The notes: a model not told the origin generated them from the letters alone. A stretch of DNA of 63,800 nt, filler included, from Reclinomonas americana ATCC 50394 (GCA_048213135.1; 18 parts of 18 records of this genome joined end to end with filler, not necessarily neighbours in it), one strand, 5' to 3'; positions 1,608 through 62,585 are shown, counted from the first letter of the whole stretch. Numbers and translations are program-made.

Positions 1608-3729
1608 ATGAGTGTGGCTACTGCATCGCGAGAGTCGCTAGACGAGCTCTCCCACATGGATGCTGCCTATGTGAGTATCTTTCGTGCAACGCACGGTGTG
1701 CGATGTGTGTTTGTGTGACACTTACTCCTTGCGTTCACATGTGCGGCGTGTGTATCAGGTGAAGGAACATGTAGAGCTCAAAAAACTCCACGTCAACCAT
1801 ATCGCACAGGCTGTGGAGTCGGAGGAATTCAGTGATTTCACCATCTTTGCCGGAGAAGAGCGCACTCTCTTCCGCACGCATTCGCTGCTGCTTGCTGCCA
1901 AGTCAAAGTACTTCCGCCAGTACTTCTCGCATGAAGATGCGGAGGCGGAGATGTTGCGCATGCACAAAAACAATGCGTGTTTCTGTGAGTTCCAAACAGC
2001 TCTCACACAATGGACGCCAACTCGACAGGCACTGGTCACATATCACGGCAGCAACGATGCGGCAGGTGCTCAACTTCGTGCACACGGTGAGCTGTGTACG
2101 CGCACTAATCCCCCAGCACCACAGCATGGTGACCTTGGTGTGCTCGTTCTTCACGTGCACAGGGTGTGATGCAAGTCTCGTTGAGCACTGTGTTCGATCT
2201 GCTGGATGCGGCGCAAGAGCTGGAGCTGGTCGAACTCTTTGAGATGTGCGACGAGTACTTTGATAGTGGGCTGTCGTCCGTACCCCAATCTCTGCAGCAC
2301 CTGGTCAGTAACTCTCAGAGTGTGCACATTTCGCTGTGCCGTTGTTTGATTATGTCTCAACGAACTTCCTCCGCATACAGGAGGCTGCAATGAATCGACG
2401 AAACGAGACGCTTTTGGAGAAGTGCTTCGTGTTTATTGACAACAACGCACAAAAAGTGTTGCAGTGCACCGAGTCGGTGCGAAAAGTCTCAACTGAGACA
2501 CTAGAGGCTGTGCTGTGCCGCCTGTCGCTCCACTGCTCGGAAGATGACTGCCTTTCGGCTGCTTTTGTGCACTCTCGAGCGAGGTTTGTGCAAATAATTC
2601 TTGATTGTGCTTCGAGTCGCAGTTTCCTTGTTTTGAATTATTTGCAACGGTTTGCTGCGCAGTGCGGATGATGCAAGAACAATGGTCGCACTGAGCAAGC
2701 ACATCAGTCTTCTCCACGTGCCGAAGTCCAGGTCTTCACCCTTACGTGTCATGAGGTGCGACAAGAGCTAGGGGTGGTACTGATGTGCGTCAACACAGAT
2801 TCCCAGAGGTGTACAACTGTGGCCTCTTCCCTCAGGACATGATTCAAGAGTGGGCCTTGTATCTGGCGTACAATGACCTCTTTGCCGATCGAGTTGGCAT
2901 TGGCACTCCTTTAGCCACCGGCAGTGGCGACCAGGGTGGCATCGTCTCTGGTGAATGTGCAAGTGGTTCCGGTGAAGGTGCGAGTGCCTTTGGTCACGAT
3001 GAAAGTGGCTCTGGTGAGGAAGACAGTAGCACGACTAAGGGCGACAGGAGCCCAGACTCCATCCCTGTCGGAGACCACAGCAGTGTGGACCGTACGAACG
3101 CCGGAACATGCATGTTTCGCCGCGGCCCAGTTCTCCGCTTGCTCGATGCCGTCGCTGCACAGTTGGTACTGCGACGAATATTGAAGGCACGCGGCGTGCA
3201 AAAGATCAACATTTCGCGCTTGTTCTTGGCAACCACTGACGGATTCAGCGCCGCTGCATTCCATGATCGCTGTGACAACCGAGGGTGCGTCCCGTCAGCG
3301 AATACTGTGTGCAGTTTGTTTGCGTTTTTATGACATGATACATTCTGCAGAGCGACACTGACGATCATCCACACGAAGTCTGGGCACGTTTTCGGCGGCT
3401 ACGCTCCGGTTGCTTGGACGAAGGGCTCAGGCTGGCAGGGAACACCACAGCTGGATTCATCTGGCAGTAGCTTTCTGTTCGCGACTACCAACGGGTTGAA
3501 ATTGTTCGATCTCGTGAACAAGGACACGGCAACTATCCACAGCGCCAACAGAGGACCGTGTTTCGGAGATGAATTTGTCATTGCGGACAACTGTAACGCA
3601 CACGAGTCGACTGCGGGATCCATGTACGGAGGAGTAATGTCCTACAACTACAATGGGTCAAGACTGAGTGACCTCGTCGGATCCAACAAGTTTTTGATCG
3701 CCGACTACGTCGTCTATCTCATCGAATGA
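1608..3729 (+). CDS. BTB/POZ-BACK-TLDc domain protein, paralog 1 (multi-exon)
   Basis: GT-AG splicing gives BTB start SDFTIFAGEERTLFRTHSLLLAAKSKYFR, a BACK-like helical region and a C-terminal TLDc domain (LFLATTDGFSAAAFHDRCDNRG/ATLTIIHTKSGHVFGGYAPVAW...GPCFGDEF...DYVVYLIE*). ATG 1608, TGA 3727-3729. Confidence 0.85.
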
Positions 3730-3892: not shown

Positions 3893-6185
3893 ATGAGTGC
3901 TGCCGCTGCTGCTGTGCTCAGTTCATCGCCAGGCACCAGCGTTCCACTCATCTCCGCTGATGTGCGTGCACCCAACTTCCACACACATGTGGTCATTGCT
4001 GACACTTCTGACTGCACATGCTTCTCGTCGCACAATCCTCGCAATCGCCTCTCTGTACTCACGGACAGGAGAAAAAGCATCTGGCACACGTGGAGTGCGT
4101 TGCACTGGCTGTCGAGTCAGAGGACTTGAGTGATTTCACCATCTTCGCTGGCGAAGAGCGAGAGCCGTTTCGCACGCACTCATTGCTGCTCCGCATCAAG
4201 TCGCACTACTTCCGCGAGATGCTGGCAAAGGGGAGTTCATGGGCGGAGGCAACTTTGAAATTATTGTTGCGTCCCCCACGGTCGGCGTGTTGAACATGGC
4301 CATGGTCGGAATAGTTTCCCTCACGCTCGACTGCAATTCGACAGAGAGAAGCCGAGCATCACTGCAGCGACCATGAAGCTGGTCTTGGACTATGTGCACA
4401 CGGTGAGTTGCGCCAACGCCGCGCGCGAGAGTGCTGGCAACAATCAGTACTAGTTGCATTGTGAAAGCTGTACAGGGTCTCACAGCTTCTATCAATTTAT
4501 CAGGGTGTGACTGTCATCACTTTGGACAACATCTTCACGTTGTTCAACGCTGCCGACGAGTTGCGAATGGTCGAGCTGTGTGATCTGTGTCGCTCGGAGT
4601 TTGGTCGTGGATTGCAATCAAAGGATGCTGCGCTTCACTTCCTAGTAAGTTTGAATATGCAATGCCCGCTGCGCGCAGGTTGGAAGTCGCTCATCTTTGT
4701 GGCGTTTTCTCAACATCATGCAAAGGAAGCGGCGATGGAGCAACGGAACGATCTGCTGATGCCGTTGGACAAGTGCCTTGCAATAGTCGACAAACACGCA
4801 GAAGCGATTCTGTCAAACTTCCAGGCGGTGCAGGAAGTCAAGACTAACACGCTAAAATCGGTGTTGTCTCGACATACACTGCAGTGTTCCGAGGACATGT
4901 GCCTCACCGCTGCTTTGGAACATGCACGAATAGCATCTAGCTACAGGTCAGGTTGTGCAGGCGACCTGAACGCGATCGCAGCCCTTTTCACGATTATTTT
5001 TGTTCCGATCGCGTAGAAGCGGCTCTCCATCTGGCGAGGCGGTTAATGTGATGACGGAGCTGAGTGAGCACATCAATCTCCTCCACTTGTCGCGGTCTAG
5101 GTTTGGACATTGCCTGTTAATTTTCGTGTGCAGGTGCACTGCTGCAGCTCATTCGAACGTGACAGATTCCGGCAAGTGAAGGAGTGTGGTACTTTCTCTG
5201 CTGATCGATGGCTGGAGTGGGCTGAGTATTTGGCGTTCCCGGAGCTGTTTGCTGAGCGAGACCGCATCGGTGTTCCTACAGTTGGCGACGACTTTGGTGA
5301 CGAGTCTCACACCGATTCAGACGACGCAGACGGTGATGCTGCTGGCGCCGGCAGCGATGCTAACAAGGATGCTGACGAGACTCCCACGTCCGGTAGTGCG
5401 GCTCAGGACGATGGGCATGACGTGAGCAGTGGTGATCAAGCTGCCCCTCGCATCGGGGCCATCTGCATGTGTCGCCAGTTTCCTGCACTCCTCTTCCTTA
5501 GTCTTCCGGATGCGGAAATGATCGTGCAGCGGACTCTGCGCTGCCGCGGCGTCACTGAATTCCGTTTGTCGCTTTTGTTTCTCGCAAGCAAGGACGGATA
5601 CAGTGGTGCCGCTTTCCGTAATCGCTGCAACTACCGAGGGTATGTACATGTACTGGCCATGGGGCACCTCCGGTATTTATTAGCTTCTGTAACTGACATT
5701 GGTGTTGCAGAGCAACGTTGGTCGTCGTCAAAACCACGACGGGTCGCGTTTGCGGCGGTTACACTCCGGTACCATGGAACATGGCAGAACCCAGACACGA
5801 AAAAGAAGGCATGGGGACGTTTTATTCTGACAACACGGGAACGACGTTCTTGTTTGCAGCACCGGGGGGCGATAAACCGGTGCAATGCTTCACTCAGCTT
5901 GACAAGGCTAAAGCAACTTGTCACAAGGAGAACTGGGGACCACATTTTGGAGACGACCTCAAGTTGTGCTTCAACGGCGACGCCAACACCAAAAACGCGA
6001 ATCAGTCCAAACTCGGTTCTTGGTTTGGCGAAGCGCAGCGCGCCGGCTCCGAAGCTGGCGCTAGCAGTACGCCACCGAAGCCACCAGCCGGCCGCGGCGT
6101 TCCACTTTGTAACCCGATTGAGTCACTGCTTGTTGGTTCCACCAGTTTTACCGTGGACGATTATGCCGTGTACCTCATTGAGTAG
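3893..6185 (+). CDS. BTB/POZ-BACK-TLDc domain protein, tandem paralog 2
   Basis: Same architecture and intron positions as 1608-3729: SDFTIFAGEEREPFRTHSLLLRIKSHYFR, LFLASKDGYSGAAFRNRCNYRG, CGGYTPVPW, GPHFGDDL, DDYAVYLIE*. Confidence 0.85.
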
Positions 6186-10200: not shown

Positions 10201-13105
10201 TTGCTTCATCGGCCGCAGCCGTGATTCCTCATGCGGGCGGCGCCGCGGCTGCCGGTGCCTCTGCCGTCCTCTCTGCTGCGGCCGCTGGTGGACACGCCGA
10301 CTCGGCGGCACGCACGCAGGAGGTCCATGCCCTGCGCACCCAACTGCAACAGGCCGAGGCCGCACACGCCGAGACTCGTCGCGCACTGGAAGGAGAGCTG
10401 ACGGCGCTGCGCGCGCAGCTGGCCGAGACCGAAGCGGTTCGCTTGGCGGCCGAGGAGCGAGCCACCGACGCTGAGGAGCGAGCGACGGCCGCCGAGGAGG
10501 AAGCGGAGCGGCTCCGTGAGCGCATGACAGACAGCGAGGAGGTGGTGGCAGCCCTGCAGACGCAACTCAACAGCGTAGAGAACGAGTTGAGAACGGAGCG
10601 GCAGCGTGTCGCCGAGAAGGACGAGGAGTTGGCGCGGTTGCGACATGTGGCGCCAGGTTTGCGTGTCGGCAGAGTCGTGTGAGTGGGAGTGTTGCTCATC
10701 TCTCTTTCTCTCCCTCTTTGCAGTGCACGCTGCAGTGGTGGAGGCACAGGGCGTGCGCGCCTATCCGTGGCAATTGTTGGAGCAGGCCACGGACAACTGG
10801 TCACAGCGGTACTTGGTCGGCGAGGGTGCGCATGGTCGAGTGTACCTCGTGCTGCTGGAGAATCAGGAGGTCGCCATCAAGATGCTGACGGCGGACACGG
10901 ATGTGCGACAGGAGGCGTTTGAGCGGGAGGTAAGCATGCTTGGGTGGGTGCGATAAAGTGGAAGTATGTGCTGATGTGTTTCAATAGGTGGAGATGCTGA
11001 GCCGTCTGCGCCACCGTCGTCTTGTTCCTCTGCTGGGTCACTCGAGTTCTGTCGGCGGCTCAAACCAGAGATGCCTGGTCTACAGGGCAATGGAGTTGCG
11101 CTATTGCTCATGTTCCTTTCGTGAAGCTCTCTCTCTCTCTCTCTCTGGTTGCAACTTCAGCTACACGTTGTACTCGTCTCTGGGAGTGACGACAGCCTGC
11201 TCTTCTTCAGCACTTGCATCTGTCTTCGTCGTCTCTGTCTCTGCCCTTTCTTCCATTCCATCAGGGCTACCGCTACGCATTACATGCGTCGTTGGGAGCA
11301 GTGACGGCCTGTTTTCTGTTGTGTCCCTTCTTCTCCAGCACTTGAAGGTGACCGCCCTTTCCCCTTTCTCTCAGCACTTCGTCCAATGTGATTCACGCCA
11401 CTACACGTCGTACGTGTCGTTGGAAGAATCTACGGCCTGCATCGCCTGTCTCTCTTCGAGTCGTTTTGTACTTCCCTACTTGCACCTCTCCTCTCCTCAT
11501 CCAATCATTCCCGTTCTTCGCTCTCATTTCGTGACTCACCCCCACCTCACAGGCGCGACAACCTCGAGATGCGACTCATGATCTCCAACTCGGTGACACC
11601 GCCACTCACGTACACGCAGCGCATGCAGATCGCGCTCGGCATCATTGAGGGCCTGGTATTTTTGCATGCGGTGAGAGCGTTGCGATGTAACAGTCACTCG
11701 TCATGCTCGCTCACCACCTTTCGTGTATGTGCCGCAGAACAATGTCGTGCACTGCGACCTGAAACCGGCCAACGTGTTGTTGGATCACCGACTGGAACCA
11801 TGTCTGGCCGACTTTGGCATTGCCAAGAGCCTCGGTGCTGACCAGGTGCGTGCGCGCGTATTCTCTCTTTCAAGTCTCTCCCCGTCTCACACACGCCGAC
11901 ACACAGGCCGCGATGACCATGGGCGGCTCACGGTACTACGTGGACCCGCTGTCGCTGGCCACGGGCGAGTCGGGCTCGGAGGTCGACATGTACGCGTTTG
12001 GCGTGATTATTGTGCAGCTGCTGACGCGCAAGGCGGCCAAGGATGCGGTGCAGTTGGCGCTGCGCGTGCAGCGCACACCCGAGGCGGTGGATGCGGTGGC
12101 CGAGGCAGACCGCACTGCCGGGTTGTGGCCGGATGTGGTGGCGCGGAGGTTGCTGGATGTGGCGGCGTCGTTGCGTCAACAGGGGGAGATGGAGGGGAAG
12201 GGAGGAGAGGAGAAGGGGGTAAAGGGGAAGAGAGGATAGAGGAAAGAGAGGGAGGAGGAAAGAAGGAACTTGAGCGCGAAACGGGAGGAGAGAATGAGAG
12301 TAAGAGAGGAAAGAGAGAAAGTTGACGAGAATTCGGGTTGATGAGTGTGGATGCAAATTCGAGAAGAAAAGAAAAAGGAATGAAAAGGGGAGAAGAGTAA
12401 GCGGGGAAAAATGAGGGCAGAGTAAGAGAGGAAAGAGGGCCGGGAATGGTGACGAGAAATCAGGATGTCGAGTGCGAATACGCATAGGTGCAGAAGAGGA
12501 AACGGAATGAGAAGTGAGGGGAAGTGTCGTCGGGATAGAGAGGCGCAGGCGAAGAGAGGGAAGAGTAAGGGAGGAAGACAGACAGGGAAGTTGACGAGAA
12601 ATCGGTGCGGATGCTGACTGGTGAAGAAGAGGAAAACGGAAGGAGAGGAGAGGAGAAGCGTGAGCAGGGGATAGAGAGACGAGGCGAAGGGAGTGAAGGA
12701 ATGAGAGGCAGGAATGGTGACGAGAAATCGGGGTCTGATGGTGAATACAAACAGGAGAAGAATAACAAAGGGAATGAGAAGGGAGAAGAGAAACGTGAGA
12801 AAAGTAGGGCAGAGTACGAGTGGACAGTTGGAGGAAAGACAAGAGGTCGGGTTATGAAGAACAGCAAAGGGAATGAGAAGGGAGGAGAAGAGTAACCTGG
12901 GAAGAGTAAGAGAGGGAAAGAGAGAGACAGGGTGGAGAGACGGAAAGGGGAAGAAGATGTTCGCATCCTTGATCGAATTGCTCACGATCTACCCCACCAC
13001 AGATGCACAGCACTCTCGCAAGCACGACCGACGGCCGTCGAAGTGGAGGCCACCATCCGCCAGCTGAGAGAGGTGTGCGGCGGTTTTACAATGGAGCTGT
13101 TTTAA
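7222..13105 (+). CDS. WD40-repeat / Pro-Ala linker / coiled-coil / IRAK-Pelle-RLK-type Ser/Thr kinase fusion
   Basis: Exon 1 (ATG 7222 or 7309, to 8077) has GH...WD-type repeats. A phase-1 intron 8078-9804 joins SAAH/DKTVRLWN. Then come a Pro/Ala linker, an E/R/A coiled coil and the kinase: YPWQLLEQATDNW, VGEGAHGRVY, VAIK, RLRHRRLVPLLG, LVYRAME, RMQIALGIIEGLVFLH, HCDLKPANVLLD, ADFG, DMYAFGV, SCTALSQARPT. TAA at 13103-13105. Confidence 0.8.
8985..9420. repeat. Diverged ~220-bp tandem duplication inside kinase intron 1
   Basis: TCAACTAxTGTGTGGTCACA..TACTGACAAGAGCAACTCTCATTCTCTATTTC...GAGTGCCATGGCAxTCCTTCGG occurs at ~8993 and ~9210. Confidence 0.85.
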
Positions 13106-13150
13106 GAGCGGACGAGTACGGTGTACGAATAAAAAAATCGTCTCTATTTT

Positions 13151-15277
13151 TCATTTGCCCATGACCACTGCGGGTGGCGGCGGCGGCGGTGCCGGTACCG
13201 ACGAGCCGTGGTTTGTCGCACGATGCAAGTACGCCACGTACCGATCGTGGTCGAGGCGAATCTGTCGCTCGTTCAGCACCTGTCGCTCGAACACGCCATC
13301 TTGCACGTAGAGGATGCGGTCGGCGTAGCACTCGACGTCGGGATTGTGCGTCACCATGATCATGGTGGTGCGCTGCAGCTGGTTGATCTCCAGCAGCAGA
13401 TCCATGATTTCGATGGTGTTCCGGGTGTCGAGGTCGCCGGTGGGTTCGTCTGGAATGAGGAGTGGTGAGGAGGAGATGCAAGGGAGGGAAGAGAGGAAAG
13501 GGTGGACGCACCAAGGAGCAGCAGCTCTGGTTCGTTGGCCAGTGCGCGAGCGATAGTCACGCGTTGTTGTTCGCCGCCACTCAGCTCCGACGGGAGGTGC
13601 TTCATGCGGTCCTGCAGGCCGACCACTGAGGGGGGAGAGAGGGGAAGGGAGGGAGAAATGAGGGCGAGACTCTTATGCATCGTTTCCCCTTCAACGCAAC
13701 TGGTCAACAACTGCTTGGCCCGCTCGCGTGAGTCCCTCGCTGATCGCTTGCCAAGCAGCGTCATCGGCAACTCGACATTCTCCACCGCCGAGAGCGTCGG
13801 CAGCAGGTTGAACGTCTGGAACACGAAGCCGATTTTCGAGAGGCGCAGATCCGACAGGAAGTCGTCGGTGGTTTGCGCGGTGATGGTGGAGCCGAGGATC
13901 TCTGTGGGATGAATGAGAAGGGGAAGGGGGTGGTNNNNNNNNNNNNNNNNNNNNNNNNNNNNNNNNNNNNNNNNNNNNTTAATTAATTAANNNNNNNNNN
14001 NNNNNNNNNNNNNNNNNNNNNNNNNNNNNNNNNNAGAGCAAAGCAGAATGAGCAGCCGGTGGACGACGAAAAAGGAAAGACGACATCAGAGTCCTCAAAT
14101 GCGGAATGTGCGTCCGGAGGTCGATGTGCGGGGAACAAAGAGGCAACAGAAAGCTCTCTCTTGAAGCAGGAAGAACAGACCTTGCTTGATGCACGAAGGA
14201 TGAGACAAATGACAGACTGAGCATTGTTCTCACTGCAAGAGCTTGACGCAGAAAGAGCGGCACACGATGACCAGCAAGTGACACTCACTGCAGAAAGAAA
14301 GCAGATTGAGATGCCCGTGGCAGATGCGCGACGACAACCAGCTATGTAATACGTTGGAGCAAAAAGAGCAGCCCGTGCGAGAGCAAAAGACGACCAGCAA
14401 GAAGCAGAATGGATTGGCGAAAGCTTGAGGCAGAGAGAGCTGGCCTTGAGCGAGTAAAGGAGAGCACAAGACACAGGGACAGCAACAGCAACCCCTGGTT
14501 GATGAAAGGATGCAGCACAGGAGCCTGAAGCAGAAAGTAAAGATCTCGAGTGCTAAAGAACTGAGCACAATCTCAGTGCTCCTCTCTTGTCGTGCAGCCA
14601 CGCAACGAAGAGTGCCCGATGACTGCCGATCAATGGTTCCGATAATGTTGAGCAGGGTGGTCTTGCCGCCGCCGGAGGGTCCGCGAATCATCACAAACTC
14701 GCCTCGTCGCACCGACTCGAATCCATTGCTGCTGCTCAGCTCGGCGTCGTCCAGGCAAATGTCTTCCAGGGCGTGCACGGTGTCTTCGCGGCCTTGGATG
14801 GTGTATTCTGGGGAGAGGGAAGGGTGAGAGGGGAAGGGGTGGGAGAGGGAAGGGAAGGGAGGAGAAGGGAAGGAGTGAGAGAGGGAGGGAGCGAGAAGGA
14901 AAGGAGAGGAAGAAGGGAAGGACGAGAGAGAGTGGGGAAGGGAAGGGTGGGAGAGTGGGGAAGGGAAGGGCGAGAGAGTGGGGAAGGGAAGGGCGAGAGA
15001 GTGGGGAAGGGAAGGAGTGAGAGAGGGAGAAGGGAAGGGAGAGAGAGAGAGAGAGAGAGAGAGAGGTAGGGGAAGGGAGGTGGAGTGAGTGATGAGTAGG
15101 AAGGACGAAGGGTGGCGACCGTAAAGGTGTTCGAGGTGACGACTCGAGGCGCTGCATGCGAGCCAGACACTGAATGANNNNNNNNNNNNNNNNNNNNNNN
15201 NNNNNNNNNNNNNNNNNNNNNTTAATTAATTAANNNNNNNNNNNNNNNNNNNNNNNNNNNNNNNNNNNNNNNNNNNN

Positions 15278-15310
<33 letters not shown>

Positions 15311-15388
15311 GAGGAGGAGGAGGAGGAGGAGGAGGAGGAGGAGAGAGGAGGAGGAGGAGGAGAGAGGAGGAGGAGGAGAGAGAGAGGA

Positions 15389-15420
<32 letters not shown>

Positions 15421-16100
15421 GAAGGGAAGGGTGTGAGTGAGTGATGATGAAGGCAAGGTGGCGCCTAAAGGTGTTCAGGTGACGACTCAGGCGCTGCATG
15501 CAGCCAGACACTGAATGAATGAGAGAGACAAAGAGAGAGTGACAGATGGCGAATGAGTGTGTGAGGGAGGGAGGGAGGGAGCGGGAGAAGGAGTGACCGA
15601 GAGTGAGTGAGTGAGAGACGATGGAGGCAAGGTGGCGCCTGAAGGCGTTTAGGTGACGACTTTGGCGAGAATGCAGCCAGTCATTGATGAGTGAGAGTGC
15701 ATGAGAGATTGTGCGTGACAGAGAGAGAGAGAGAGAAAGAAAGAGAGAGAGAGAGAGAGAAAGAAAGAGAGAGAGAGGCAAGGGGGATAAGAGGCGCCTG
15801 AGGTGTTCAGGCGACAACTTAGGCGCAGGATGCAGTCAGTCATTGAATGATGTTAGATTGAGTGTACATGTGTGTGTGTGTGTGCATGTGTGTGTGTGCG
15901 AGTGAGAGAGAGAGTGAGAGATTCAGAGAGAAAGAGAGACAGTGAGAGTGCAATCAGTCTTCTTCTTCTCTTCCTCTTTCTCTCTGTCTCTTCACTGATG
16001 CACCTTTATGCACATGAGTGGCGACCACCACTGGTTCTCCCAGTGGCTTCTCAATGCCCAATGGTCGGCGACCGGAAAACACCTCGCGCAACTCCGTCAT
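13151..16100 (-). CDS. Stand-alone ABC ATPase, LolD/MacB/FtsE-like (protist ABCH-type), multi-exon, spans two gaps
   Basis: Exon 1 16100-16004 MTELREVF...[11 protein letters not shown] splices to [17 protein letters not shown]. Walker [21 protein letters not shown], signature [19 protein letters not shown], Walker [13 protein letters not shown] and H-loop MVTH are all present. No transmembrane segment. Confidence 0.88.
15095..15850. repeat. Four copies of a ~70-bp unit separated by (GA)n/(GAG)n tracts in ABC intron 1
   Basis: AGGCAAGGTGGCGCCTxAAGGxGTTxAGGTGACGACT...GCAGCCAG at ~15100, 15451, 15625 and 15776. The first copy may be a contig-end overlap. Confidence 0.75.
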
Positions 16101-16716
16101 ACTCTCTCACACAAAGAAAAATGCTCGAATTAATATTGCCCCGACAACTTCGAAGGTGGCGAAGTATGGTGGAGACCAGTCGTGTATTGCAAGTAGCAGA
16201 AGAGAGAGCAAGACGGAATGAGAGAGGCTGCACGTGTGCTGCTTGTGTTCGAATTTGCAATTGCAATCTCCTGAAAGGGAAGATGACTGTTGGAGAAGAT
16301 TAATTATGTGTTTGAATATATATTGGTGTGCCAAGGTCATTGTCGGCAAGGGATTTGTGGGCGTTTATCGCATTATTGGAATGGTGAATGAAGTGTTTTG
16401 TTTTTTGTTTCGAACGTCGAGGTGCTTGCCAGAGTTGTGCAGAGGTCGCTGCAGACATGCAACTAGAATGCAGATGGTGTACACTAGGAGTGCGTGTGAT
16501 CTGCCACGTGCAGCAATTCGTTGAACGCGACAGTGAGTGTGTTGAGCGTGCGACGTCGAGCAACACGCAGCTGCTTTGCAGCTTCGACGCCAGTTGCTGC
16601 TGTTGTGAGAGATCGACTGATCAGACTTGCAGTACTCACGCTTCACAGCACAGGCGACTTGGTGTACGTGGCCGAGGAGTGTGCTGTCCTGCAATGCACT
16701 TTTCTTTCTTGTTGCC
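16101..16716. promoter_or_regulatory. Putative divergent promoter region between ABC ATPase and QDPR
   Basis: Head-to-head starts at 16100(-) and 16717(+), with an AT-richer interval between them. No specific motif identified. Confidence 0.45.
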
Positions 16717-17181
16717 ATGAAGCGTGTGTTGGTGTATGGTGGTGAGTGAAGCATGCAAAGCAGTGAGCAAAGGACCACTCCTCTCACTCACTCACTCGCT
16801 GTACACTACACGCACTGCATTCACTTTCTGCATTCGCTGCATTCCCTCACTCACACGCTCTCTCTCCATACTCACACTCACACTCACTGCACTCTTCCTC
16901 ACTCACTCACTCACTCTCCGCACTCACTGCACTCTTCCTCACTCACTCACTCACTCACACACTCGCTCACTCTCTCACTCATTCACTCACTCACTCACTC
17001 TCTCACTCACTCACTCACTCACTCACTCACTCACACTCTCACTCACTCACTCATTCACTCTCTCCCTCTCTCATTCACTCACACACTCTCTCTCTCACTC
17101 TCTCACTCACTCACTCAATCACTCAATGCACTCTTCCCTCTCTTGCCCTCTCTCTCTTCTCCTCTCTCTCTCTCTCTCCTC

Positions 17182-17219
<38 letters not shown>

Positions 17220-19684
17220 AGGATGTGGTGCCCTCGGCCGTTCCGTGATTAGCGCCTTCCGTGCCTCGGCAGGCGCCGAATGGTCCGCCGTCAGCGTCGA
17301 TGTCGTGGAGAATGCAGATGCCAATGAGTCGATTACGATTTCTCCCGACCAGTTGCGTGTGCCTCGCGGAAGAGACAAGCGAAGTCTGTCGTTGCTTATC
17401 CTCACTCAGGCCACTTTGCTTCCTCGTCACTCATTCTCTCTTCTCGTTTTCTTCTCAAGCACTCACTGTCGATCTCACAGTAACTCAAGCGCTCACTGCA
17501 CACTCATCTGCAATGCTCACTCATTCTCCGACTTGCTGCCTTGTCGTTTCTTATCCTCACTGAGCTCACTCTCTCTGCTTCCTCTTCAATCTCCCGACGA
17601 GCTGCCATTTGTTTTGTCTCAGCACACCCACTCTAGATCCCACACTCATCTGCGGTCGTCACTCATTCTCTCCTGACTTACTGCCTTCTCATTTGCTTCT
17701 CAATCGCAGCCATCGCCGAGGGTTGTCTTTTCCCTCCCATTCTGTCGCACTCGTTTGCTTCTCATTCGTAATTCAAGCGTTCTCACTGCATATACATCTG
17801 CAATGCTCACTCATTCTCCCGACCAGCTGCCTGTGCGTTTGCTTTTCAATCGCACTCACTGTCGAGACTTACTTGTCGTTTCCCTCCCTTCCTTTCTTTG
17901 ACACTCATTCGAGTCCTCTCTCATTCTCATGTAATTTGCTGCCTTCTCGTTTGCTTCTCATTCGTAATCAGGCACGCTCGCTGCGTTCATCTATCATTCT
18001 CCGACTTACTGCCTTGTCGTTGCTCTGTCGAGACTTGCTCGTCGTCTCGTTACTCCCTTCCTATCACACTGTGCGGTCGTTCCTCATTCTCCTTGCGTTA
18101 TTCATGGTGTCACTTCTTTCTTCTCTGTCGATCCTTCTTTCTTCTTTTCTCTTGCTGCTGTTTCTCCATCATCCCGACCTTTGTTGTTCTCGTACTTTTC
18201 TTTTCTCCGCAGTATTCATCTCGTCCCTTCTCTCTCTGTTCTTCCGTTTCCATGCCACTGATCCTCCACGTCCTCGCAGAACGTGGGACGAGCAGCTGGC
18301 CACGGTGCAGGAGCGCCTGGGCGACTCCAAGCTCGATTCCGTGATTTGTGTGGCCGGTGGCTGGGCTGGTGCGTGACCTTTGCCTGCAACAGGAGGACCC
18401 ATCTTTGCTGCTCACCTCATCTCGCAGGTGGCAATGCGGCCAGCAAGGAGACACTGTCCAACGCCGAGCTCATGTGGAAGGTGTCGGTGATGACGTCAAT
18501 GGTTGCCGCGCGCGTGGCTGCCGAGCATTTGAAGGAGTTGCGTGTGAGCAGCAGTGGGTGCGATGCTCTCGTCTGTTTGTTCACAATCGAGCGACAGGAA
18601 TGGACTGCTGGTTCTCACGGGAGCGCAGGCGTGCGTGGGTGGTACACCGGGCATGATTGGTGTGTGGATGAGCTCCTCTGGCTTTTCTTCGCCTTTCTAC
18701 CTTCAGTTTTCCCTCTTCCATCATCTCGCCCATCCTCTCTCCCCATCCTCTCCCCCATCCCCTCCCCCAGTCTCTCCCCCAGTCTCTCCCCCAGTCTCTC
18801 CCCCATTCTCTCCCCCATTCTCTCCCCCATTCTCTCCCCCATTCTCTCCCCCATTCTCTCCCCCATTNNNNNNNNNNNNNNNNNNNNNNNNNNNNNNNNN
18901 NNNNNNNNNNNTTAATTAATTAANNNNNNNNNNNNNNNNNNNNNNNNNNNNNNNNNNNNNNNNNNNNATTCTCTCCCCCATTCTTTCCCCCATTCTCTCC
19001 CCCATTCTATCCCCCATTCTATCCCCCATTCTATCCCCCATTCTCTCCCCCATTCTCTCCCCCATCCTCTCCCCCATCCTCTCCCCCCATTTTCTCCCCC
19101 CATCCTCTCCCCCATCCTCTCCCCCATCCTCTCCCCCATCCTCTCCCCATCCTCTCTTCCCCCCTTCTCTCCCTTTGTTCTCACCCCTTTCCCCTCCCCA
19201 GGCTACGGCGCCGCCAAGGCCGCCGTGCACCAGCTGACCCAGAGCCTCGCTGCCGCCGACTCTGGCCTCCCCTCCGGCTCCGCTGTCGTGTGCATCCGCC
19301 CGTTGCGTCTCTTTCCACAGCTCCTCTTTGTATGCTTTCTCTCCCCTCACTTCCCCCCGCCGCAGTATCATTCTCGACACCCCGATGAACCGCCGCTTGT
19401 GAGTACTCTCGTTACCCCGCTGTGCTGATCGCCTTGCCTCACAGTTATTCATCGCACAGCATGCCAAACTCTGACTTCTCCACGTGGACCCCGACTGCCG
19501 CGGTGGCCGAGTTGCGTGTCAACACACTCCCCACCCCCCCCCCTTTCCCCCCCTCTCATCTCCATCACACACATCACGCAGGAAACTGGTGCAATGGAGC
19601 GAGGGCAGCGATCGACCGTCGTCTGGCTCCGCCGTCAACCTCACAACGCGCGCCGGCGAGACCACGTTCGAGATTGCGCACTGA
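16717..19684 (+). CDS. QDPR: Dihydropteridine reductase (9 exons)
   Basis: [14 protein letters not shown]...[82 protein letters not shown]. Colinear with QDPR after removing 8 GT-AG introns. Confidence 0.95.
18735..19150. repeat. 12-bp minisatellite (CCCCCATTCTCT)n in a QDPR intron, interrupted by a gap
   Basis: Direct reading; variants CCCCCATCCTCT, CCCCCAGTCTCT and CCCCCATTCTAT. Confidence 0.92.
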
Positions 19685-19782: not shown

Positions 19783-22700
19783 TCAATTCTGAAACGTCGT
19801 GACAATGTTTAGGTCGTATCGTCGCGCACTGGTGGCCGCGTCGAGCAGACGCCGCTGCTGGACCTTGTTGAGGTCGTTGGCCGCCACCTCCAGCATGCGC
19901 AGTGCGGTGCACGACCGAATCACGGCCGTGAGTCCGTCCAAGGCGGCGACACCGAATGAGCATCGCATCACTACACAAGTGAGTGAGTGACAGAAGGCAA
20001 AACAACATATCAGGGAATAAACTAAACAAACCTCGCAGCGTGCGCAGCGCACAGGGTCCTCCCGCCAGCGTGTTGAAGAACGAGTTGAACACGGGACCGG
20101 GCGACGCGTCGCGCGGATAGTTCGACACCAGCAAGTACTCTAGTGAGCAGCCGCCGGGAGCCACCAGCGCGCAGGCCAGCTCCTCCACGGCTCCCTCACC
20201 GGCGCACAGCGACGCATCAAAGCTGAACTCGCGCAGCGTGCGCATCAGCGTCGGCGAGCGACACAGCGCCTGCAGACTCGTCGAGTCGACCAGCGGGCAC
20301 CCGTAGAACAGCGTGCCCACATCCACCTCGCTCGACACGTCGTGCACGAGCACCGAGGCGCGCGCCGACAGGTGCAGCACTCGCAGTGTCTGGCAGTGGG
20401 TGGCCAGGGCGGCGGCCAGCGTGCGGAACGCCACCACCACGCCACTGTCCGCTTGTGCCTCGGGGTCGGCCAGGTCGCACAGACGCAGCGACTCGAGTTG
20501 CGGCAGCGACGGCGACGAGGCCAGCAGCGCACACAGCTGCGCACGCTGTGCGACGGTGTTGCTGGTGGGAGTGTCGTCCAGGAACTCCAAGTGTATCGCG
20601 CGCAGTGTGGCCGCGGTGGCCACGTAGTCGCCGAGCCGCACCAGCGAGTCGCCATCCATGTGCACGCGCGTGAGCTCCAGCGTCGACAGCAGCGGCAGGT
20701 AGTGCAGGCGGGCGAAGAGCTGCTGGTAAAAGGTGGATCGAGCGCGCACCGAGACGAGGCGGAGGGTGCGGAGGGAGCGGGAGGCGAACGGCTCAACTAG
20801 GGGGGGAAAGGGTGTGATTAAGGGAAGGGTGGGGGGGGAGGGGGAGGAAAGGGGAAGGAAAAGGAGGGGAGGAGGAGGAGGAGGAGGAGGAGGACGAGGA
20901 GGAGGAGGAGGAGGAGGAAGAAGAGGAGGAAGAGGAGGAGGAGGAGGAAGAAGAGGAGGAGGAGGAGGAGGATGAGGAGGCGGAGGAAGAGGAGGAAGAG
21001 GAGGAAGAGGAAGAAGATGAGGAGGAGGAGGTGGTGGTGGTGGTGGTGGTGGAGGAAGAGGAGGAGGAGGAGGAATGGGAGAGGTGGAAGAAGAAAGAGG
21101 AGAAGTTCAAGGTATAAAGCAATGGGGAGGGGAAGGGATGAAGGCAGAGAGGGCTGAGGCGAAGACGAGGAGGAGGAGGAAGAGACAGGAGAAATTACGG
21201 AATGCAAGGAGAGTGAGAGACCATGACAGATGGAAAGGGAGAAGAAGAGGAAGAAGAAGAAGAGGAGATGTTCACGAATGCGGTGATGGGGAAGGGAGGA
21301 AGGCAGAGAGAGGGATGCGAGAAGAAGACCATGACAAAGTGGAAGAGGGAAGAGAAAAGGAGGGCGAGGGCCAGGAAGACTTCACGGAATTATGTGACTT
21401 GAAGAAGGGGGTGATGAAAGGGTTGCAACACAAGGAAAGACAGAAACAATGAGACGTCAAAAAGAAGAAGATGAAAGAGTTAACGGAATGCAGGAAAAGG
21501 AATGGTGGCTGAGGAAGAATGTGCTACCATCACGGCACAACACACCCCGAGAGACATGAACTGATCAAGCATTCCTCCAACAAAGCTCTCTCTCTTTCCA
21601 CTCTCTCTTCGCCGAGAAGTGCGAGCTGCTTCCCTTTCTCTCTCCCCTTTCCCCTCCCTGCCACTCACCACCCTCCGACTCCCCTCCCGTCACTCCCCAG
21701 TACTCCAGCAACGCGCGCGCATGATGTGCCCCCTCAAACTCCATGCCCTCGAGATGGAGCTCCTCCAAGGAGTCGTGCACGCCTCGCAGCGTCTTTAGCA
21801 TGTCGGGGAACATCTCCAATGAGTCGGGCTGACTGCAGCCCAGTGCCAGTGAGCGCAGGTGGGGTAGCCTCCTGAGCAGGCGCACCAGGGTCTCCATATC
21901 TGCACACGAACGCAAATGAGCGACGGTGAAATGAAGAGAGAAGCCTCTCGCATGCGCGCAACTTCTCTTGGTGCCGAGCCACGGAGTCTCCAACGCCAGC
22001 GTCCTCAACCGCAGCCCTGTGCCGGTGCTCCGCAACCACAGCGTCGTCAGCAGCTCCAGAATCGCCGACTCTGCATGCTGCGCCAGTGTCTCACTCATCC
22101 TGTGCAATTGTGTGAGCTGCCAGCGGTGTCGAAACACCGCCCCTTACCAACACAACGCAACGCCTCGGAGTGATTGCTTCCGGTGCTGAATGTGAGCTCC
22201 TCCAGTGCGAGGTTGGCGGGCGTGGCGAGACCCTGCGCCACCATGAAGACGTACTCGGGTGTCAAGTACTCCATGGGCGGGTGGCGCACTGGGTCGGCGT
22301 TGGTGCTCGACGACACGGAGCGCGACTCGAAGGGCAGCAGGTGCATGCTGCGGAGGTGTGGGATGAGCTCGCACACGCCGCGAATGGCCAGGGCGCGGAG
22401 GTCGGATTGTGGCTGGGAGGGGGGGGAAGAGGGGGAAAGGGGGTGAGGGGGTGAGGGGGAAGGGGGTGAGGGGGGAATGAGGGACTCTCTCTTCGCTCCG
22501 AATGGATGAGGGAGGAAGAGAACAATGCAGAGAGAACGAAGGGTTGCAAAGAAAAGGAGAGAGGAGACTGAACGATGGGCGGCAACAGAGATAATGAAAG
22601 GAGAAGAGATGAGAGACGAGTGGGAATAGGGACGATCGATTCTTATCTCCTTACGTTCGCTCCACGTGGGAGAGTGAGAACGCTCAAAGGGAGAGAGAAT

Positions 22701-23598
22701 GAAGGTTGCAAAGAAGACGAGACGGAGAGAAAGGAGGAGCACAAGCGAGAACAGGGACGATCGATTTCCATCCTCTTCTCTCTTCACTCCTGGTGGGCGA
22801 GAAAGAAAGAGAACAAAGCAGAGAGAATGATGAGTTGCAAAAGAGAGGAAGGCGCTTGGCAACAACGCATCTCATTCTCACTCTCTGGAAGGAAGAGGAG
22901 AAAAAGAAGAACTGGAATACATCGAGGCTGAGAGGAAGGCGACACAGTTCTCGTCCCTCTTCCCGACCTCCCCCTTCTCCAGCAACGAAGGTGGATCCCT
23001 TATTTCTCCCTTCTCCCCTTCCCTTCTCCGTACGCAACATCCGACGTCTCAAACTCATACACCTCAAACGCCGACGCCGGCACAATCAAATGCCGCATTC
23101 GCATCGGCAAACCAGCCGCCGGCACCGATCGCATAAACTCAGGCCTGCATGCATGCACAACTCTATACCAGAATATAGCAGATATCAAGCAATAGCAGTA
23201 TATCTGAAAAAAACCTGCTATACAGTGACATTTCGCGCAACCGAGGCAGCTCACTGTGACGTGCAGTGGCGCACAGCAGATGCTGAATCTCCATGCCCGA
23301 GTACGCTGCAATCTGTGCGCGCAACGCCGCAATTTCCGAGTCGCGTTGCTCCCAGGCCGAGGCCAGTGTGCCTCGCCAGTCGAGCGAGGAGACAGAGGTG
23401 CAGGCGAGGTGCGCCCTGTTTTTGCAGAGGATGAGCGAGGCAAGGGTGGAGGTGGGGGGAAGAGCGCAAGACTCACCATCGACGACTGACGAGGGCGTGG
23501 ACTCGTGAGAACTCGGTCAAGGTGAAAAAGGAGAGAATGCAGCGCCAGATGGACTCGTCGACAGAGTCGAAGGCGAAGAGCGGCGATGGCTCTGACAT
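19783..23598 (-). CDS. F-box / leucine-rich (RNI-like) repeat protein, multi-exon
   Basis: N-terminal exon MSEPSPLFAFDSVDESIWRCILSFFTLTEFSRVHALVSRRW fits the F-box pattern. Downstream LxxLxL units: LRTLALE, LRSLALG, LEELHLE, LSTLELT, LESLRLC, LRVLHLS, LRMLEVAAN. Confidence 0.75.
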
Positions 23599-27822: not shown

Positions 27823-30800
27823 ATGCGTATCCAAGAGATCATCATTGATGGCTTCAAGAGTTGCGTCGCGAGGCGGGTGCTCGCAGAGAGCAGGCAGTTG
27901 TGGAGAGCAGTGTTGACAATCAACAGATGCGGTTGTCACTCTCTCACACCCTCACACACACGCGCGACCACAGAGAGAGAGCCTGCACGCCTCCATCATT
28001 GTCTTCGTCTTTCTTCTTGTAAGTCTCTCTTCTCTCGCCTCTCCTCTCCTCTCCTCTCTTCTCCTCTCCCCTCCTCTTCCTCTTCCCTTCCTCTTCCCTT
28101 CCTCTCTCCTCTCCCTCGCCTCTCCTCTCCTCTCTCCCTCTCTTTCCTCTCCCTCCTCTCCTCTCCTGTCCTCTTGCCTCTCCTCTCCTCTCCTCTCCTC
28201 TCCTCCCCTCTCCTCTCCTCTCCTCCCCCTCCTCTCCTCCCCCCTCCTCTCCTCCCCCCTCCTCTCCTCTCCTCNNNNNNNNNNNNNNNNNNNNNNNNNN
28301 NNNNNNNNNNNNNNNNNNTTAATTAATTAANNNNNNNNNNNNNNNNNNNNNNNNNNNNNNNNNNNNNNNNNNNNCTGGCAAGAGCAACATTCTCGACGCC
28401 ATCTGCTTTGTCCTCGGCATCTCCAACCTGCAGCAGGTACGCGTGGTTTGCATTGGTCTCTCTCTCTGCCTCTCCCTTCTCCCTCACTCTTGACGAACTG
28501 CAGGTTCGCGCCAGCAACCTCTCTGAGTTGGTCTACAAGCACGGACAGGCCGGTGTAACAAAGGCCAGCGTCAGCATCGTGTTCGACAACTCGGATCGCA
28601 GACAGAGCCCTGTCGGCTACGAGCAGTACGATGTGATCACAGTGACGCGTCAGGTGGTCATCGGAGGTGAGAACACGTCACTGCAGACAAGTGGGGGGAG
28701 ATGCCGTCAGCGAGAATCGATTCTTGCTGGAAGTCACAGCTTTCTTTGCCTGTTGCTGTCAGCATTTGCAGTGCGCTGTCTCCTCCTTGCGAGGCATTCG
28801 CTCTCTCCCTCTTTCCTTCTCTCTTCCTCCTTCCATTTCCCTTCCCCGTTCTCTTTCCAGCTACCCCTGCCCCCTCTCCTCTCCTTTCCTCTCCACTTTC
28901 CTGCTCTCTTCTTCTCTCCACTTTCCTTCTCTCCCCTCATCTCCAGTATTCGTTCTCTCCCTTCCTTGTCTCCACTTCCCTTCCCTCTTCTCCTCCTCTC
29001 TTCCCCTTCCCCTTCTCTCCCCTTCTTACCCTCCCTCCCCCTTCCGAGGCCAGGCCGCAACAAATACCTGATCAACGGCCACGTCGCGCAACTGGCACAA
29101 GTGCAAAACCTCTTCCACAGCGTCGGTCTCAACGTGAACAATCCCACCTTCCTCATCATGCAAGGCCGCATCACCAAGGTGTTGAACATGAAGCCACCAG
29201 AGGTGCGTCTCCTTGTTCTCTCAATTCTTTTCAAATCGCACGCATCAACCCCCTCTCTTTCTCGTAGGTGCTCGGCATGATTGAGGAGGCCGCCGGCACG
29301 CGCATGTACGAGGTCAAGAAGGACGCCTCGCTGCGCACCATTGAGAAGAAGGACCACAAGCTGCAGGAGATCAATGGGGTGAGCAAGAAACATTGCACCA
29401 CTCCTTCCTTCAGTCGCTCATCCCTTTCCCCACTAGATCCTGAACGACGAAATCATCCCCAAGCTCAACAAGCTGCGCGAGCAAAAGTCACAGTACGAGG
29501 AGTTTGCGCGTGCGGTCGCCGACACGGAGCGCCTCTCGCGATTCGTTGTGGCATTCACGTACACGGAGCGTGAAAAGGCCGTCAAGTTGCACCTCGTGGC
29601 CGTCGAGGATCTGCAGCGCTCGGTGCAGGAGCTCGAGTCGCAGCGCGAGGAGCTGGAACGCGAGGTACAGTTGACATTCTCTGGAGCAAAATTCAGCTTG
29701 TGTGTCTCTAGTCTCACGAACTGTTGTAGGTGCGCGCCATTGAGCGCGAGATCCACGAGTTGCAGGCGCAGCGCGACGCCAAGGTGGAGGAGGAGACGAA
29801 GCGATTGGAGGAGGCGACGACCCAGGCCTCGAAGGAAGTGGTCAAGGCCACCACCGTGTGGCAGAACCGCTTGGAGGCTCACAACAAGGAGCGGGAGGGC
29901 ATTGAGGCGACTCGTGCCAGCGCCACCGAGGTGCGTGCGACGAAGAGGAGAAAGGAGACTACAAGATGGCTCACGTTTGCGCCACGCAGGTCCAATCCAC
30001 TCTCCAGAAGCAACGGCGGCACATGGACAAGCTGCGCAAGGAGCTCGACCGCATGGTCAAGGACAAGCGCGCCGCCGAACAGCTGCTGGAGGAGCTGCAG
30101 TGCCAGTACGAGTCGGTGCTGGCCGGTGTGGCTGGTGGAGATGGCAAGAAGACCCTCACGGAGACGTTGATGGGTGAGCTGAATGGGAGGGGGAGGGGAT
30201 AGGGACAGAAAGGGGAAAAGGTCTTTGCATAAGATGCGCTGTGAAGCGAGTGACAGGCGAAAACTGTAGAATAATGTTTGTCTCTCTTCTTTCTTTTTCT
30301 CTTTGGTATCACTTCTTGTCTTTCGTTTTTCTCTTTCCTCTATGCTCCTGTTTCCGTGTCTCTCTTATTTCCTCTCTCTTTCTCTGTCTGCCAATCTCTC
30401 ATCCTCTCTTCCGTCTCTGTTCCTCTCTTTCTTCTCTCTTTCTTATATCTTCTTTCTCTTTCTCCCCCCTCTCTCTGTCTTTCTGTCTTCTGTCTCTTGT
30501 TTCGTCTCTATCTTCTTTCTCTCTTCCCGTCTGTTGTCTCGCTCTCTCACACAGTCATTCTTAGTCGTCTGTCTCTGTCTCGTCACTCTTTCTCTTACGT
30601 CTCTCACTCCTTTCCCTTGTCCTATCTTCTGCCATTCTCTTAGCTCCTTCTTGTGCTCCCCTCTCCCTCTCTCCTCCATCTCCCTCCTTCTCCCTCTCCC
30701 TTCGGTCTCTCTTCCTCTCTTTTGTTTACCTGTTCAATCTCTCCACTGTCTCTGTTGCTGTCTTTTGTTTCTCTTTTCTTCCACGTCCCTCTCTCAGTTT

Positions 30801-49134: not shown

Positions 49135-49589
49135 ATTGCGTTGCTGTTTGTCTAAAGAACTTGCGCACGTGGAGAGCGTTGGAAGCAGGAGCACTTGCGT
49201 CGTGCGTCAGCGGTGAGGGGGAGGGGAGGGGGAATGGGAGGTAGGGGAGAGAGAGAGAGAGAGGAGGGAGGGAGGGAGGGAGAAGAAAGAAAAGNNNNNN
49301 NNNNNNNNNNNNNNNNNNNNNNNNNNNNNNNNNNNNNNTTAATTAATTAANNNNNNNNNNNNNNNNNNNNNNNNNNNNNNNNNNNNNNNNNNNNGTGTAG
49401 TGTTCAACACATCCGTCGCCGGGTCATTTTCCGGGGAGCGCTGCTCGCACACACTCGCAATCATTTTCCGCTTCTCACACGCGACTCCTAAGCATGCAAC
49501 ATGCGCATTCGCGCGCATTTTTTCTCTGTGGACATGTGCCCTTCGTGCTGGTTGCTCTCTGCGCTTCTGACATTCGTGTGTGTTTCTGC

Positions 49590-58921: not shown

Positions 58922-59098
58922 CTCTCACGCAACTCTCGGCGTCTCCAGTGTAATGGGCCGGAAGCGCCTATCAAACGAGTCGGCCAGCACCACCGCCGTG
59001 AGAATCTCCGCAGCCTCCACACTGCCTCCACCACTGCCACTGCCACTGCTTCCACCACTCGCACTTCCACCGCCGCGTTTGTGCGTCTTGCTGCTCAT
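53192..59098 (-). CDS. EIF2B5: Translation initiation factor eIF2B epsilon subunit, multi-exon
   Basis: LTAVVLADSFDRRFRPITLETPR/ALIPLVGVPLIDYTIEFL, SAGDALR, DCQIDICSPEVLQEFSENFDYQDIR, hexapeptide repeats (NAYLWDRVEVGDGAVIHDAIV), ELNGVKFA, W2 domain LYDSDICSEESILDW and FVEWLKEAESEEE with an acidic tail. Confidence 0.95.
55030..55715. repeat. Diverged tandem duplications in an eIF2B epsilon intron
   Basis: CAAAAGAGTGCTT...TTGTTGGCA...AAGAGAT..T..AGAAGGGTCGC at ~55030, 55230 and 55553. Confidence 0.8.
58318..58880. repeat. Diverged tandem duplications in eIF2B epsilon intron 1
   Basis: TCTCGAGAAGCAATCGTCGAACAAGCA occurs three times and CAACAxxAAGGGCACG...AGAGGACCT four times. Confidence 0.85.
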
Positions 59099-62485: not shown

Positions 62486-62585
62486 NNNNNNNNNNNNNNN
62501 NNNNNNNNNNNNNNNNNNNNNNNNNNNNNTTAATTAATTAANNNNNNNNNNNNNNNNNNNNNNNNNNNNNNNNNNNNNNNNNNNN

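Follow-up and report, generated by a model that had tools for sequence, protein, structure and literature searches.

Why do so many introns in one stretch of DNA from Reclinomonas americana ATCC 50394 begin with the hexamer GTTGCG, and why does this hexamer almost always follow an exon base other than G? The stretch in question (hereafter the window) comprises 63,800 nt (~64 kb) of records joined with filler, and every count given below refers to it. GTTGCG occurs 65 times on the two strands of the window, compared to 36.3 +/- 5.4 occurrences expected from dinucleotide shuffles, none of 100 of which reached 65. Approximately 27-30% of the splice donors are of the type H/GTTGCG(T), where the slash marks the cut and H is A, C or T, and we call these class 2 donors; the other ~70% are class 1. 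When the two are aligned, (G)A/GTTGCGT reads as the class 1 sequence (G)AG/GTGCGT cut one base earlier and carrying one substitution, the T that makes the intron begin with GT.

The window has a G+C content of ~54% and consists of eukaryotic nuclear DNA with many introns and with scaffold gaps. Pfam matches to open frames locate a dozen genes or more, including two tandem BTB/TLDc genes, a WD40/kinase gene, and genes for an ABC ATPase, dihydropteridine reductase (DHPR), SMC2, a cation-efflux (CDF) transporter, GET3/ArsA, eIF2B-epsilon and RRP36. The homologues found for SMC2 and eIF2B-epsilon, some of which bear oomycete or labyrinthulid names, are just 30-60% identical, and so the protein collection holds no close relative of the organism. 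Genes were modeled with an exon-chaining dynamic-programming (DP) gene finder that scores codon content, the intron-side donor bases +3 to +9 and the acceptor bases, and that is exon-blind in that exon bases at splice sites are never scored. The program recovered the main genes, but it chained neighboring genes together and missed short exons; its unedited output serves as an exon-blind control. Hand curation of 11 genes, in which all chains obey GT-AG, stay in frame and contain no internal stop, gave 70 donors (the curated set), and the inclusion of donors found by DP only brings the number to 88. All introns are predictions from the sequence.

The exon-final base separates the two classes almost completely. 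The 24 GTTGCG donors (21 curated and three DP only) are preceded by A in 13 cases, by C in five, by T in five and by G in one. A first-pass annotation had claimed that 23 of 24 such donors follow A, C or T, with the donor at 37346 as the exception, and our rebuilt gene models reproduce this tally exactly; its examples (GA/ at 11095, TC/ at 12170, CA/ at 17352 and CC/ at 19302) are correct as well. In the curated set, an exon-final G precedes 1/21 GTTGCG donors and 43/49 of the others (Fisher p=2.7e-11), which constitutes a very strong dependence of the -1 base on donor class among these predicted introns. For all 88 donors, the corresponding values are 1/24 and 52/64 (p=1.9e-11). As a measure of background, 20% of all GT dinucleotides in the window are preceded by G.

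Such a split could be an artefact of intron choice, either in the first-pass annotation or in our own analysis, or of coding constraints alone. The introns are predicted, several short exons were placed by hand, and intron phase and the -1 base are linked, all of which speak for this explanation. However, the DP output without manual edits gives the same split (-1 G in 0/14 GTTGCG donors versus 45/64 others, p=8e-7), and the 'introns' that DP calls on antisense strands have -1 G in 9/31 cases. The split likewise persists when only phases 0 and 1 are considered, where by our own tally 39/40 class 1 donors and 1/10 class 2 donors follow G. Furthermore, many junctions are tied to coordinates in the Protein Data Bank (PDB), in Pfam or in homologues. 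In DHPR, exons match PDB chain 1hdr_A at residues 93-127, 130-148 and 150-180. Exons of GET3 cover positions 46-117, 121-147, 206-246 and 255-304 of the ArsA_ATPase profile, those of RRP36 cover 30-54, 58-127 and 134-164 of the Pfam RRP36 profile, and those of the CDF gene match their profile at 31-64 and 65-94. The ABC exons match ABC_tran at 7-42 and 100-132, the kinase exons match Pfam Pkinase at 5-41, 117-150 and 155-195, and eIF2B-epsilon and SMC2 exons were placed via tblastn of homologues. Considering these results together, we regard an artefact as highly improbable.

For certain short exons, frame logic was the sole basis of placement: CDF 37427-37347, CDF 36682-36620, the last kinase exon, and eIF2B-epsilon 54623-54513. 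PDB searches returned no usable match for CDF exons 37348-37425 and 36621-36680 or for the last kinase exon, and therefore donors 37346, 36619 and 12170 rest on frame logic. The 81-nt CDF exon at donor 37346 reads as a membrane helix, with no significant PDB match. At the other kinase donor (11094..11101), the Pkinase coordinates leave ~66 profile positions for the two surrounding exons, and there are weak PDB matches to receptor-like kinases. Several DP donors, such as those at 28677, 18554 and 11410, were rejected and replaced on homology or frame grounds.

Class 1 donors show where an exon-final G is used. Their profile (n=49) has A at -2 in 24 donors, G at -1 in 43 and G at +3 in 35, and on the intron side it continues with A (24) or C (18) at +4, G at +5 (42) and T at +6 (31); GTGCGT accounts for 13/49 by our own tally. 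Among curated donors, exon-final G and intron-side strength are negatively associated, as in exon-intron compensation. All 26 donors with degenerate hexamers (neither GTGAGT or GTGCGT nor GTTGCG) follow G, compared to 17/23 donors with consensus hexamers (p=0.007). This agrees with the claim of the first-pass annotation that degenerate donors, among them GTTTGC at 10657, GTCCTC at 60757 and GTACAG at 29665, follow an exon-final G; its GTCTTC donor is probably CAG/GTCTTC at 2732, which is not among our modeled donors. Conversely, the 26 curated donors that lack an exon-final G comprise 20 GTTGCG, four GTGAGT and two GTGCGT, and include no degenerate hexamers.

The bases that flank GTTGCG are displaced by one position relative to class 1. 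We scored the 21 curated GTTGCG donors under the profile of the other 49 curated donors. Exon positions -3 to -1 of class 2 score -67.4 bits when unshifted and +6.0 bits when shifted by one base, and intron positions +7 to +9 score -4.0 bits unshifted and +16.7 bits shifted. For example, class 2 has T at +7 in 15/21 donors, which resembles class 1 position +6 (31/49, p=0.59) and is unlike class 1 position +7 (11/49, p=0.0003). This T also distinguishes donor from non-donor occurrences of the hexamer (16/22 versus 14/43, p=0.0035). On the exon side, A at -1 in 12/21 class 2 donors resembles A at class 1 position -2 (24/49, p=0.61). Because the exon and intron flanks fit only when both are moved by one base, these data favor a shifted register and disfavor a bulge.

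In the latter arrangement, G+1 and U+2 would pair normally, U+3 would bulge, and GCGU would pair as in class 1. A bulge predicts the T at +7, and hence the intron-side shift, equally well. However, it needs the -1 G as much as or more than class 1 does, and the sequences retain this G in 1/21 class 2 donors versus 43/49 class 1 donors, with A favored in its place. We therefore rejected the bulge, and consider it very improbable as an account of class 2.

A discrete second donor motif that lacks an exon-final G might instead mark a separate kind of intron, either of the minor-spliceosome (U12-like) type or derived from mobile 'introner' copies. We compared 3' features for the first 64 curated donors, of which 18 class 2 and 45 class 1 introns have both ends. 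The pyrimidine tract is the same in the two classes (0.72 versus 0.73), a CTCAC-like branch motif has a median distance of 18 nt to the 3' end in both, and the classes are alike in their -3 base, in their bimodal lengths and in G+C. Mean pairwise identity at +10 to +40 is 0.260 for class 2 and 0.253 for class 1, indicating no similarity between copies. The GTTGCG motif is also unlike a U12-type donor, and introns of the U12 type have donor and branch-site motifs of their own and lack a pyrimidine tract. Given 3' signals that are alike and no similarity beyond +9, we concluded that class 2 introns are neither minor-type introns nor mobile-element copies, and both candidates were rejected; a separate intron kind is thus extremely improbable.

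What does distinguish the classes is intron phase. Phases 0/1/2 are represented by 21/19/5 class 1 introns and 2/8/9 class 2 introns (chi-square p=0.0016), and class 2 is concentrated where the final exon base is the second codon position. When the six BTB donors are included from exon lengths, the counts become 25/19/5 and 2/8/11, with the p value applying to the smaller set. In the BTB paralogues, exons are 63% identical and GTTGCG is kept at the same intron, while the intron bodies have diverged.

These features could be explained by ordinary GT-AG spliceosomal introns with two classes of 5' splice site. Class 1 would be (G)AG/GTG(A or C)GT, or weaker versions of it, and would depend on the exon-final G. 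Class 2 would be the class 1 nine-mer GAG/GTGCGT displaced by one base with respect to the cut, such that the first intron G sits where class 1 has its exon-final G and TGCGT follows one position deeper in the intron. The T at +2 would then be the single mismatch, forced by the need for the intron to begin with GT. The factor that recognizes the donor early, most probably U1 small nuclear RNA (snRNA) through its 5' end, would pair in a register displaced by one base, with the cut set later at the GU; for their frames to be kept, the gene models require the cut at H/GT. As a consequence, the last exon base would be free, and class 2 would be used where the codon offers no G, mainly in phase 2.

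Using ViennaRNA, we calculated the best helix that each donor can form in a fixed register against the textbook U1 5' end given in PMC4856993. Class 1 donors in the normal register average -7.19 kcal/mol. The values for class 2 are close to zero in either register, as detailed below. Removal of the +3 U without a bulge penalty gives -1.87 kcal/mol (19 donors), a point in favor of the bulge register. A hypothetical U1 in which G and C opposite +4 and +3 replace the two pseudouridines gives -7.72 kcal/mol for shifted class 2 donors and -8.41 kcal/mol for class 1 donors. The near-zero textbook energies, together with the invariant C at +5, imply that textbook U1 is not the whole story, and it is because this C needs explaining that we propose an altered or variant U1. 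Our best explanation, to which we assign roughly even confidence, is that one recognition helix serves both classes, is shifted by one base in class 2, and is formed by a U1 that differs from the textbook form where it faces +3 and +4, or by a variant that is also present. Specifically, we infer that the donor is read by U1, whose altered positions lie opposite class 1 positions +3 and +4, or that a variant fulfills this role.

A dedicated variant U1 that pairs fully with (A)GUUGCGU in the normal register would make any shift unnecessary, and class 2 would then be an ordinary donor, strong on its intron side, for that variant. It would explain the invariant C at +5, the T at +7, the A at -1 and the near absence of a duplex with textbook U1. 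Variant U1s have reportedly been found in human. Passages of bioRxiv 10.1101/2022.06.08.495308 report changed U1 5' ends, as well as modified U1s that occur alongside standard ones, in Entamoeba, Mastigamoeba and Physarum. However, this proposal leaves as a coincidence the identity of class 2 with the commonest class 1 nine-mer slid by one base, and a variant one base off the main U1 would merge with the shifted-register picture. An Rfam scan of the window found no families at the gathering score and, at E<=0.1, only matches on GA-rich low-complexity DNA, so that no snRNA gene is present in the window. We consider a dedicated variant in normal register rather unlikely.

Alternatively, the reader of the GCGU block might not be U1 but, for instance, a protein or an snRNA that makes contact later, with the -1 G of class 1 serving a separate need that GTTGCG bypasses. 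Textbook U1 energies near zero for class 2 are consistent with this possibility, as is the report, in passages of bioRxiv 10.1101/2022.06.08.495308, that lineages with GYGCGY donors keep a standard U1, which suggests that a preference for C at +4 can exist without U1 complementarity. Yet a factor fixed at the catalytic center (U6, U5 or Prp8) should not accept the block one base further from the cut, and the exon side shifts along with the intron side, as one continuous helix predicts. On balance, a non-U1 reader is unlikely.

Several observations weigh against the shifted U1 helix that we favor. First, the evidence comes from one 64-kb window in which every intron is deduced from the genomic sequence, and 10/24 class 2 donors were placed by frame logic alone. 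Second, -1 G is found at 1/22 GTTGCG donors and at 7/43 non-donor GTTGCG sites (A14, T12, C10, G7), a difference that is not significant (p=0.25; this comparison predates the addition of two more donors). The rule is therefore that G is not required, rather than that G is avoided, which corrects the wording of the first-pass annotation. Third, beyond A, the -1 position of class 2 fits class 1 position -2 loosely (C4 and T4 versus C5 and T15). Fourth, with textbook U1 the class 2 mean is -0.13 kcal/mol in the normal register and -0.80 kcal/mol in the shifted register; the shifted register is thus better on average by only 0.67 kcal/mol, and it is better in only 10/21 donors, with no stable helix in the rest. 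The proposal that the intron +1 G replaces the missing exonic G in the U1 duplex accordingly draws its support from the dependence of the -1 base on class and from the one-base slide of the flanks, and little from a textbook-U1 gain of ~0.7 kcal/mol. Fifth, changing C to A at +5 in silico yields -4.22 kcal/mol, meaning that textbook U1 prefers A at this position, and GTTGAG is not enriched in the window (39 versus 54.8 +/- 7.3 expected) and is never a donor in the models. Finally, the lineages with C at +4 that keep a standard U1 in the relevant passages of bioRxiv 10.1101/2022.06.08.495308 are the Mamiellales and Thecamonas, and thus a changed U1 is not the default expectation.

We also considered the bolder proposal that the shifted register is a mainstream mode, used by about a quarter of introns through a U1 or variant that co-evolved to read G-C-G where other eukaryotes use two pseudouridines, and that, thanks to the shifted class, an intron can follow whatever base ends the exon. 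Both parts of this proposal are tentative, and we view them as possible rather than probable.

Table 1. Class 2 (GTTGCG) donors in the window, followed by ordinary donors of note. Slashes mark the cut; ranges include the exon-final base.
Donor	Coordinates	Strand	Gene	Basis and remarks
T/GTTGCGC	1952..1959	+	BTB/TLDc copy 1	Phase 2, 76-nt intron; in-frame chain, next exon's frame fixed by paralogue
T/GTTGCGT	4265..4272	+	BTB/TLDc copy 2	Intron position same as 1953; flanking exons 63% identical to copy 1
A/GTTGCGC	11094..11101	+	Protein kinase	In-frame chain
C/GTTGCGT	12169..12176	+	Protein kinase	833-nt GA-rich intron; in-frame chain to stop; last exon without PDB match
A/GTTGCGT	13694..13701	-	ABC ATPase	DP and curated chain; ABC_tran 7-42, middle exon, 100-132
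C/GTTGCGT	14600..14607	-	ABC ATPase	DP and curated chain; ABC_tran coordinates
A/GTTGCGT	17351..17358	+	DHPR	In-frame 9-exon chain, 0 internal stops
A/GTTGCGT	18536..18543	+	DHPR	Adjoining exons align to 1hdr_A 93-127 and 130-148
C/GTTGCGT	19301..19308	+	DHPR	Upstream exon aligns to 1hdr_A 150-180
A/GTTGCGT	19510..19517	+	DHPR	In-frame 9-exon chain
A/GTTGCGC	21956..21963	-	Leucine-rich-repeat-like	DP model only
C/GTTGCGT	22155..22162	-	Leucine-rich-repeat-like	DP model only
T/GTTGCGT	23032..23039	-	Leucine-rich-repeat-like	DP model only
A/GTTGCGT	27859..27866	+	SMC2	3' of exon 1; acceptor lost in scaffold gap
A/GTTGCGC	35851..35858	-	CDF	In-frame 12-exon chain
A/GTTGCGC	36613..36620	-	CDF	In-frame chain; 20-aa exon without PDB match
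G/GTTGCGT	37340..37347	-	CDF	Sole GTTGCG donor after G; 81-nt exon keeps frame
A/GTTGCGA	47941..47948	+	GET3/ArsA	DP and curated; next exon begins at ArsA_ATPase position 206
T/GTTGCGT	54506..54513	-	eIF2B-epsilon	111-nt exon keeps frame; homologue alignment resumes in next exon
T/GTTGCGT	57815..57822	-	eIF2B-epsilon	tblastn of homologues, DP and curated chain
A/GTTGCGT	58927..58934	-	eIF2B-epsilon	tblastn: homologue residues 20-43 end at donor, alignment continues in next exon
A/GTTGCGA	61212..61219	+	RRP36	66-nt intron; Pfam profile 58-127 and 134-164 spans intron
A/GTTGCGT	62070..62077	-	DUF6935	TAG stop if read through; DP and curated
C/GTTGCGT	62225..62232	-	DUF6935	DP and curated
T/GTGAGT	19398..19404	+		Ordinary donor lacking -1 G (six in all, each a perfect hexamer)
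T/GTGAGT	1671	+		Perfect hexamer without -1 G
T/GTGCGT	3962	+		Perfect hexamer without -1 G
C/GTGAGT	60406	+		Perfect hexamer without -1 G
T/GTGAGT	36828	-		Perfect hexamer without -1 G
A/GTGCGT	56922	-		Perfect hexamer without -1 G
G/GTTTGC	10656..10662	+		Degenerate donor after G; in-frame alternative C/GTGTCG six bases downstream makes the choice ambiguous

Other GTTGCG occurrences were evaluated as donors and rejected. The copy at 31383 has a sole nearby acceptor that would give 62 nt, out of frame, and those at 49020, 16092, 10637, 11679, 4407 and 55444 are exonic or lie within another intron. At 4403-4412 (+), G/GTGAGT and A/GTTGCG overlap, four bases apart (CACG GTGA GTTGCGCC), and paralogy with 2087 favors G/GTGAGT. 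Within an eIF2B-epsilon exon at 54842-54780 (-), C/GTTGCGTGC is followed 63 nt on by CACATCAG/, forming a C/GTTGCG donor candidate. The frame is kept whether this 63-nt segment is removed or retained, making a retained or alternative intron possible, and we left it out of all counts.

The tandem BTB/TLDc paralogues (1656-3729 and 3893-6182, +) have the same intron positions, and their donor class matches at the first three introns; in both copies, the first intron follows a non-G base with a perfect hexamer. The lengths of curated introns are 55-112 nt in one group and 247-1196 nt in the other. Strand-asymmetric low-complexity repeats, mostly CT-rich on the sense strand, fill the introns of the longer group, and GA-rich examples are found at 12170-13002, 32656-32916 and 33360-34535 (+) and at 53973-53542 (-). 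The 937-nt intron of eIF2B-epsilon (55924-54988, -) contains four or five diverged units of ~100 nt (containing ...agagacggagatttgaaagcgacccttct...). A 16-nt micro-exon at 36760-36745 (-), encoding DLNML, lies between two introns of ~60 nt and is needed for the CDF frame.

Runs of N around TTAATTAATTAA are scaffold gaps, nearly all within long introns, and are flanked by CT- or GA-rich microsatellite-like repeats. Their approximate positions are 13935-14035, 15179-15277, 18869-18967, 28275-28374, 37860-37958, 49296-49394, 50864-50962 and 62485-62585, and the gap at 28275-28374 takes away the start of SMC2 exon 2. The region 49400-50862 (+) has coding-like composition, shifting frames and no Pfam match, and DP joins it only via doubtful donors such as cca/GTTGCC at 50344. 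The closest SMC2 relative found in metagenomes (contig L001, 3727-7413) is a gene without any intron, compared to at least 16 introns in the SMC2 gene of the window. GTTGCG is not enriched in that contig (5 versus 5.3 expected), and this relative is uninformative about donors.

In the prevailing view, U1 recognizes donors in nearly the same way in all eukaryotes, and non-canonical registers are treated as rare human exceptions. An abundant, fixed class of out-of-register donors, if real, would change this picture by making the register an evolvable property, and would offer a natural test bed in which the place where U1 binds is separated from the place of the cut. The shifted-register reading also makes a sharp prediction about the 5' end of the organism's U1. 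In practical terms, gene finders trained on a single donor model would mis-call about a quarter of the introns here, as our first DP passes did.

How do these donors compare with known systems? Our search of the literature, which excluded supplements and the organism's own genome paper, found no description of a GTTGCG or GUUGCG class of splice donors, and it returned only human work and one tunicate study on 'shifted register' splicing. Shifted-register pairing of U1 with atypical 5' splice sites in human was reportedly described by Roca and Krainer in 2009.

According to the relevant passages of PMC4856993 (Tan et al. 2016) and PMC9311317, there is established evidence that rare donors in human use the shifted register; at such atypical sites, the whole donor/U1 helix moves by one position and the first intron G replaces the exon-final G (PMC4856993). 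As proposed here, the cut in the human case stays at the GU, and the test oligonucleotide printed in that paper also has A at -1. In contrast, the validated non-canonical registers together account for 1.5% of human donors in the passages of PMC4856993 concerned, versus 21/70 curated donors of predicted introns for class 2, and GUUGCGU, unlike the human shifted sites, pairs poorly with textbook U1 in any register. Bulge registers (Roca et al. 2012, as cited in passages of PMC9311317 and PMC4856993) share with class 2 the presence of one extra intron base between the GU and the paired block. They differ in that their -1 G:C pair is kept, whereas the -1 G is dispensable here.

Changes in U1 itself have precedents. 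As described in passages of bioRxiv 10.1101/2022.06.08.495308, the U1 5' ends of the Archamoebae Entamoeba and Mastigamoeba co-evolved with atypical donors, and so provide a precedent for the altered recognition sequence that the invariant C would need. Those organisms have one donor class in the normal register, whereas the window has two classes and a proposed register shift. The abundance of GTGCGT in class 1 is reminiscent of the GYGCGY donors of Mamiellales and of the +4 C of Thecamonas, for which the same passages of the preprint describe a standard U1 and mention no GTTGCG class.

Finally, exon-intron compensation is the negative coupling of exonic and intronic consensus bases, as outlined in passages of PMC10599564 (citing Carmel 2004, Sahashi 2007 and Denisov 2014). 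Our donors conform to this pattern, in that weak intron sides are accompanied by an exon-final G (26/26) and donors without -1 G are strong on the intron side. Unlike the mild statistical trend described there, compensation in the window is close to all-or-none, and the compensating motif is a slid copy of the consensus. What is new here is the scale (21/70 donors), the near all-or-none rule and the motif itself.

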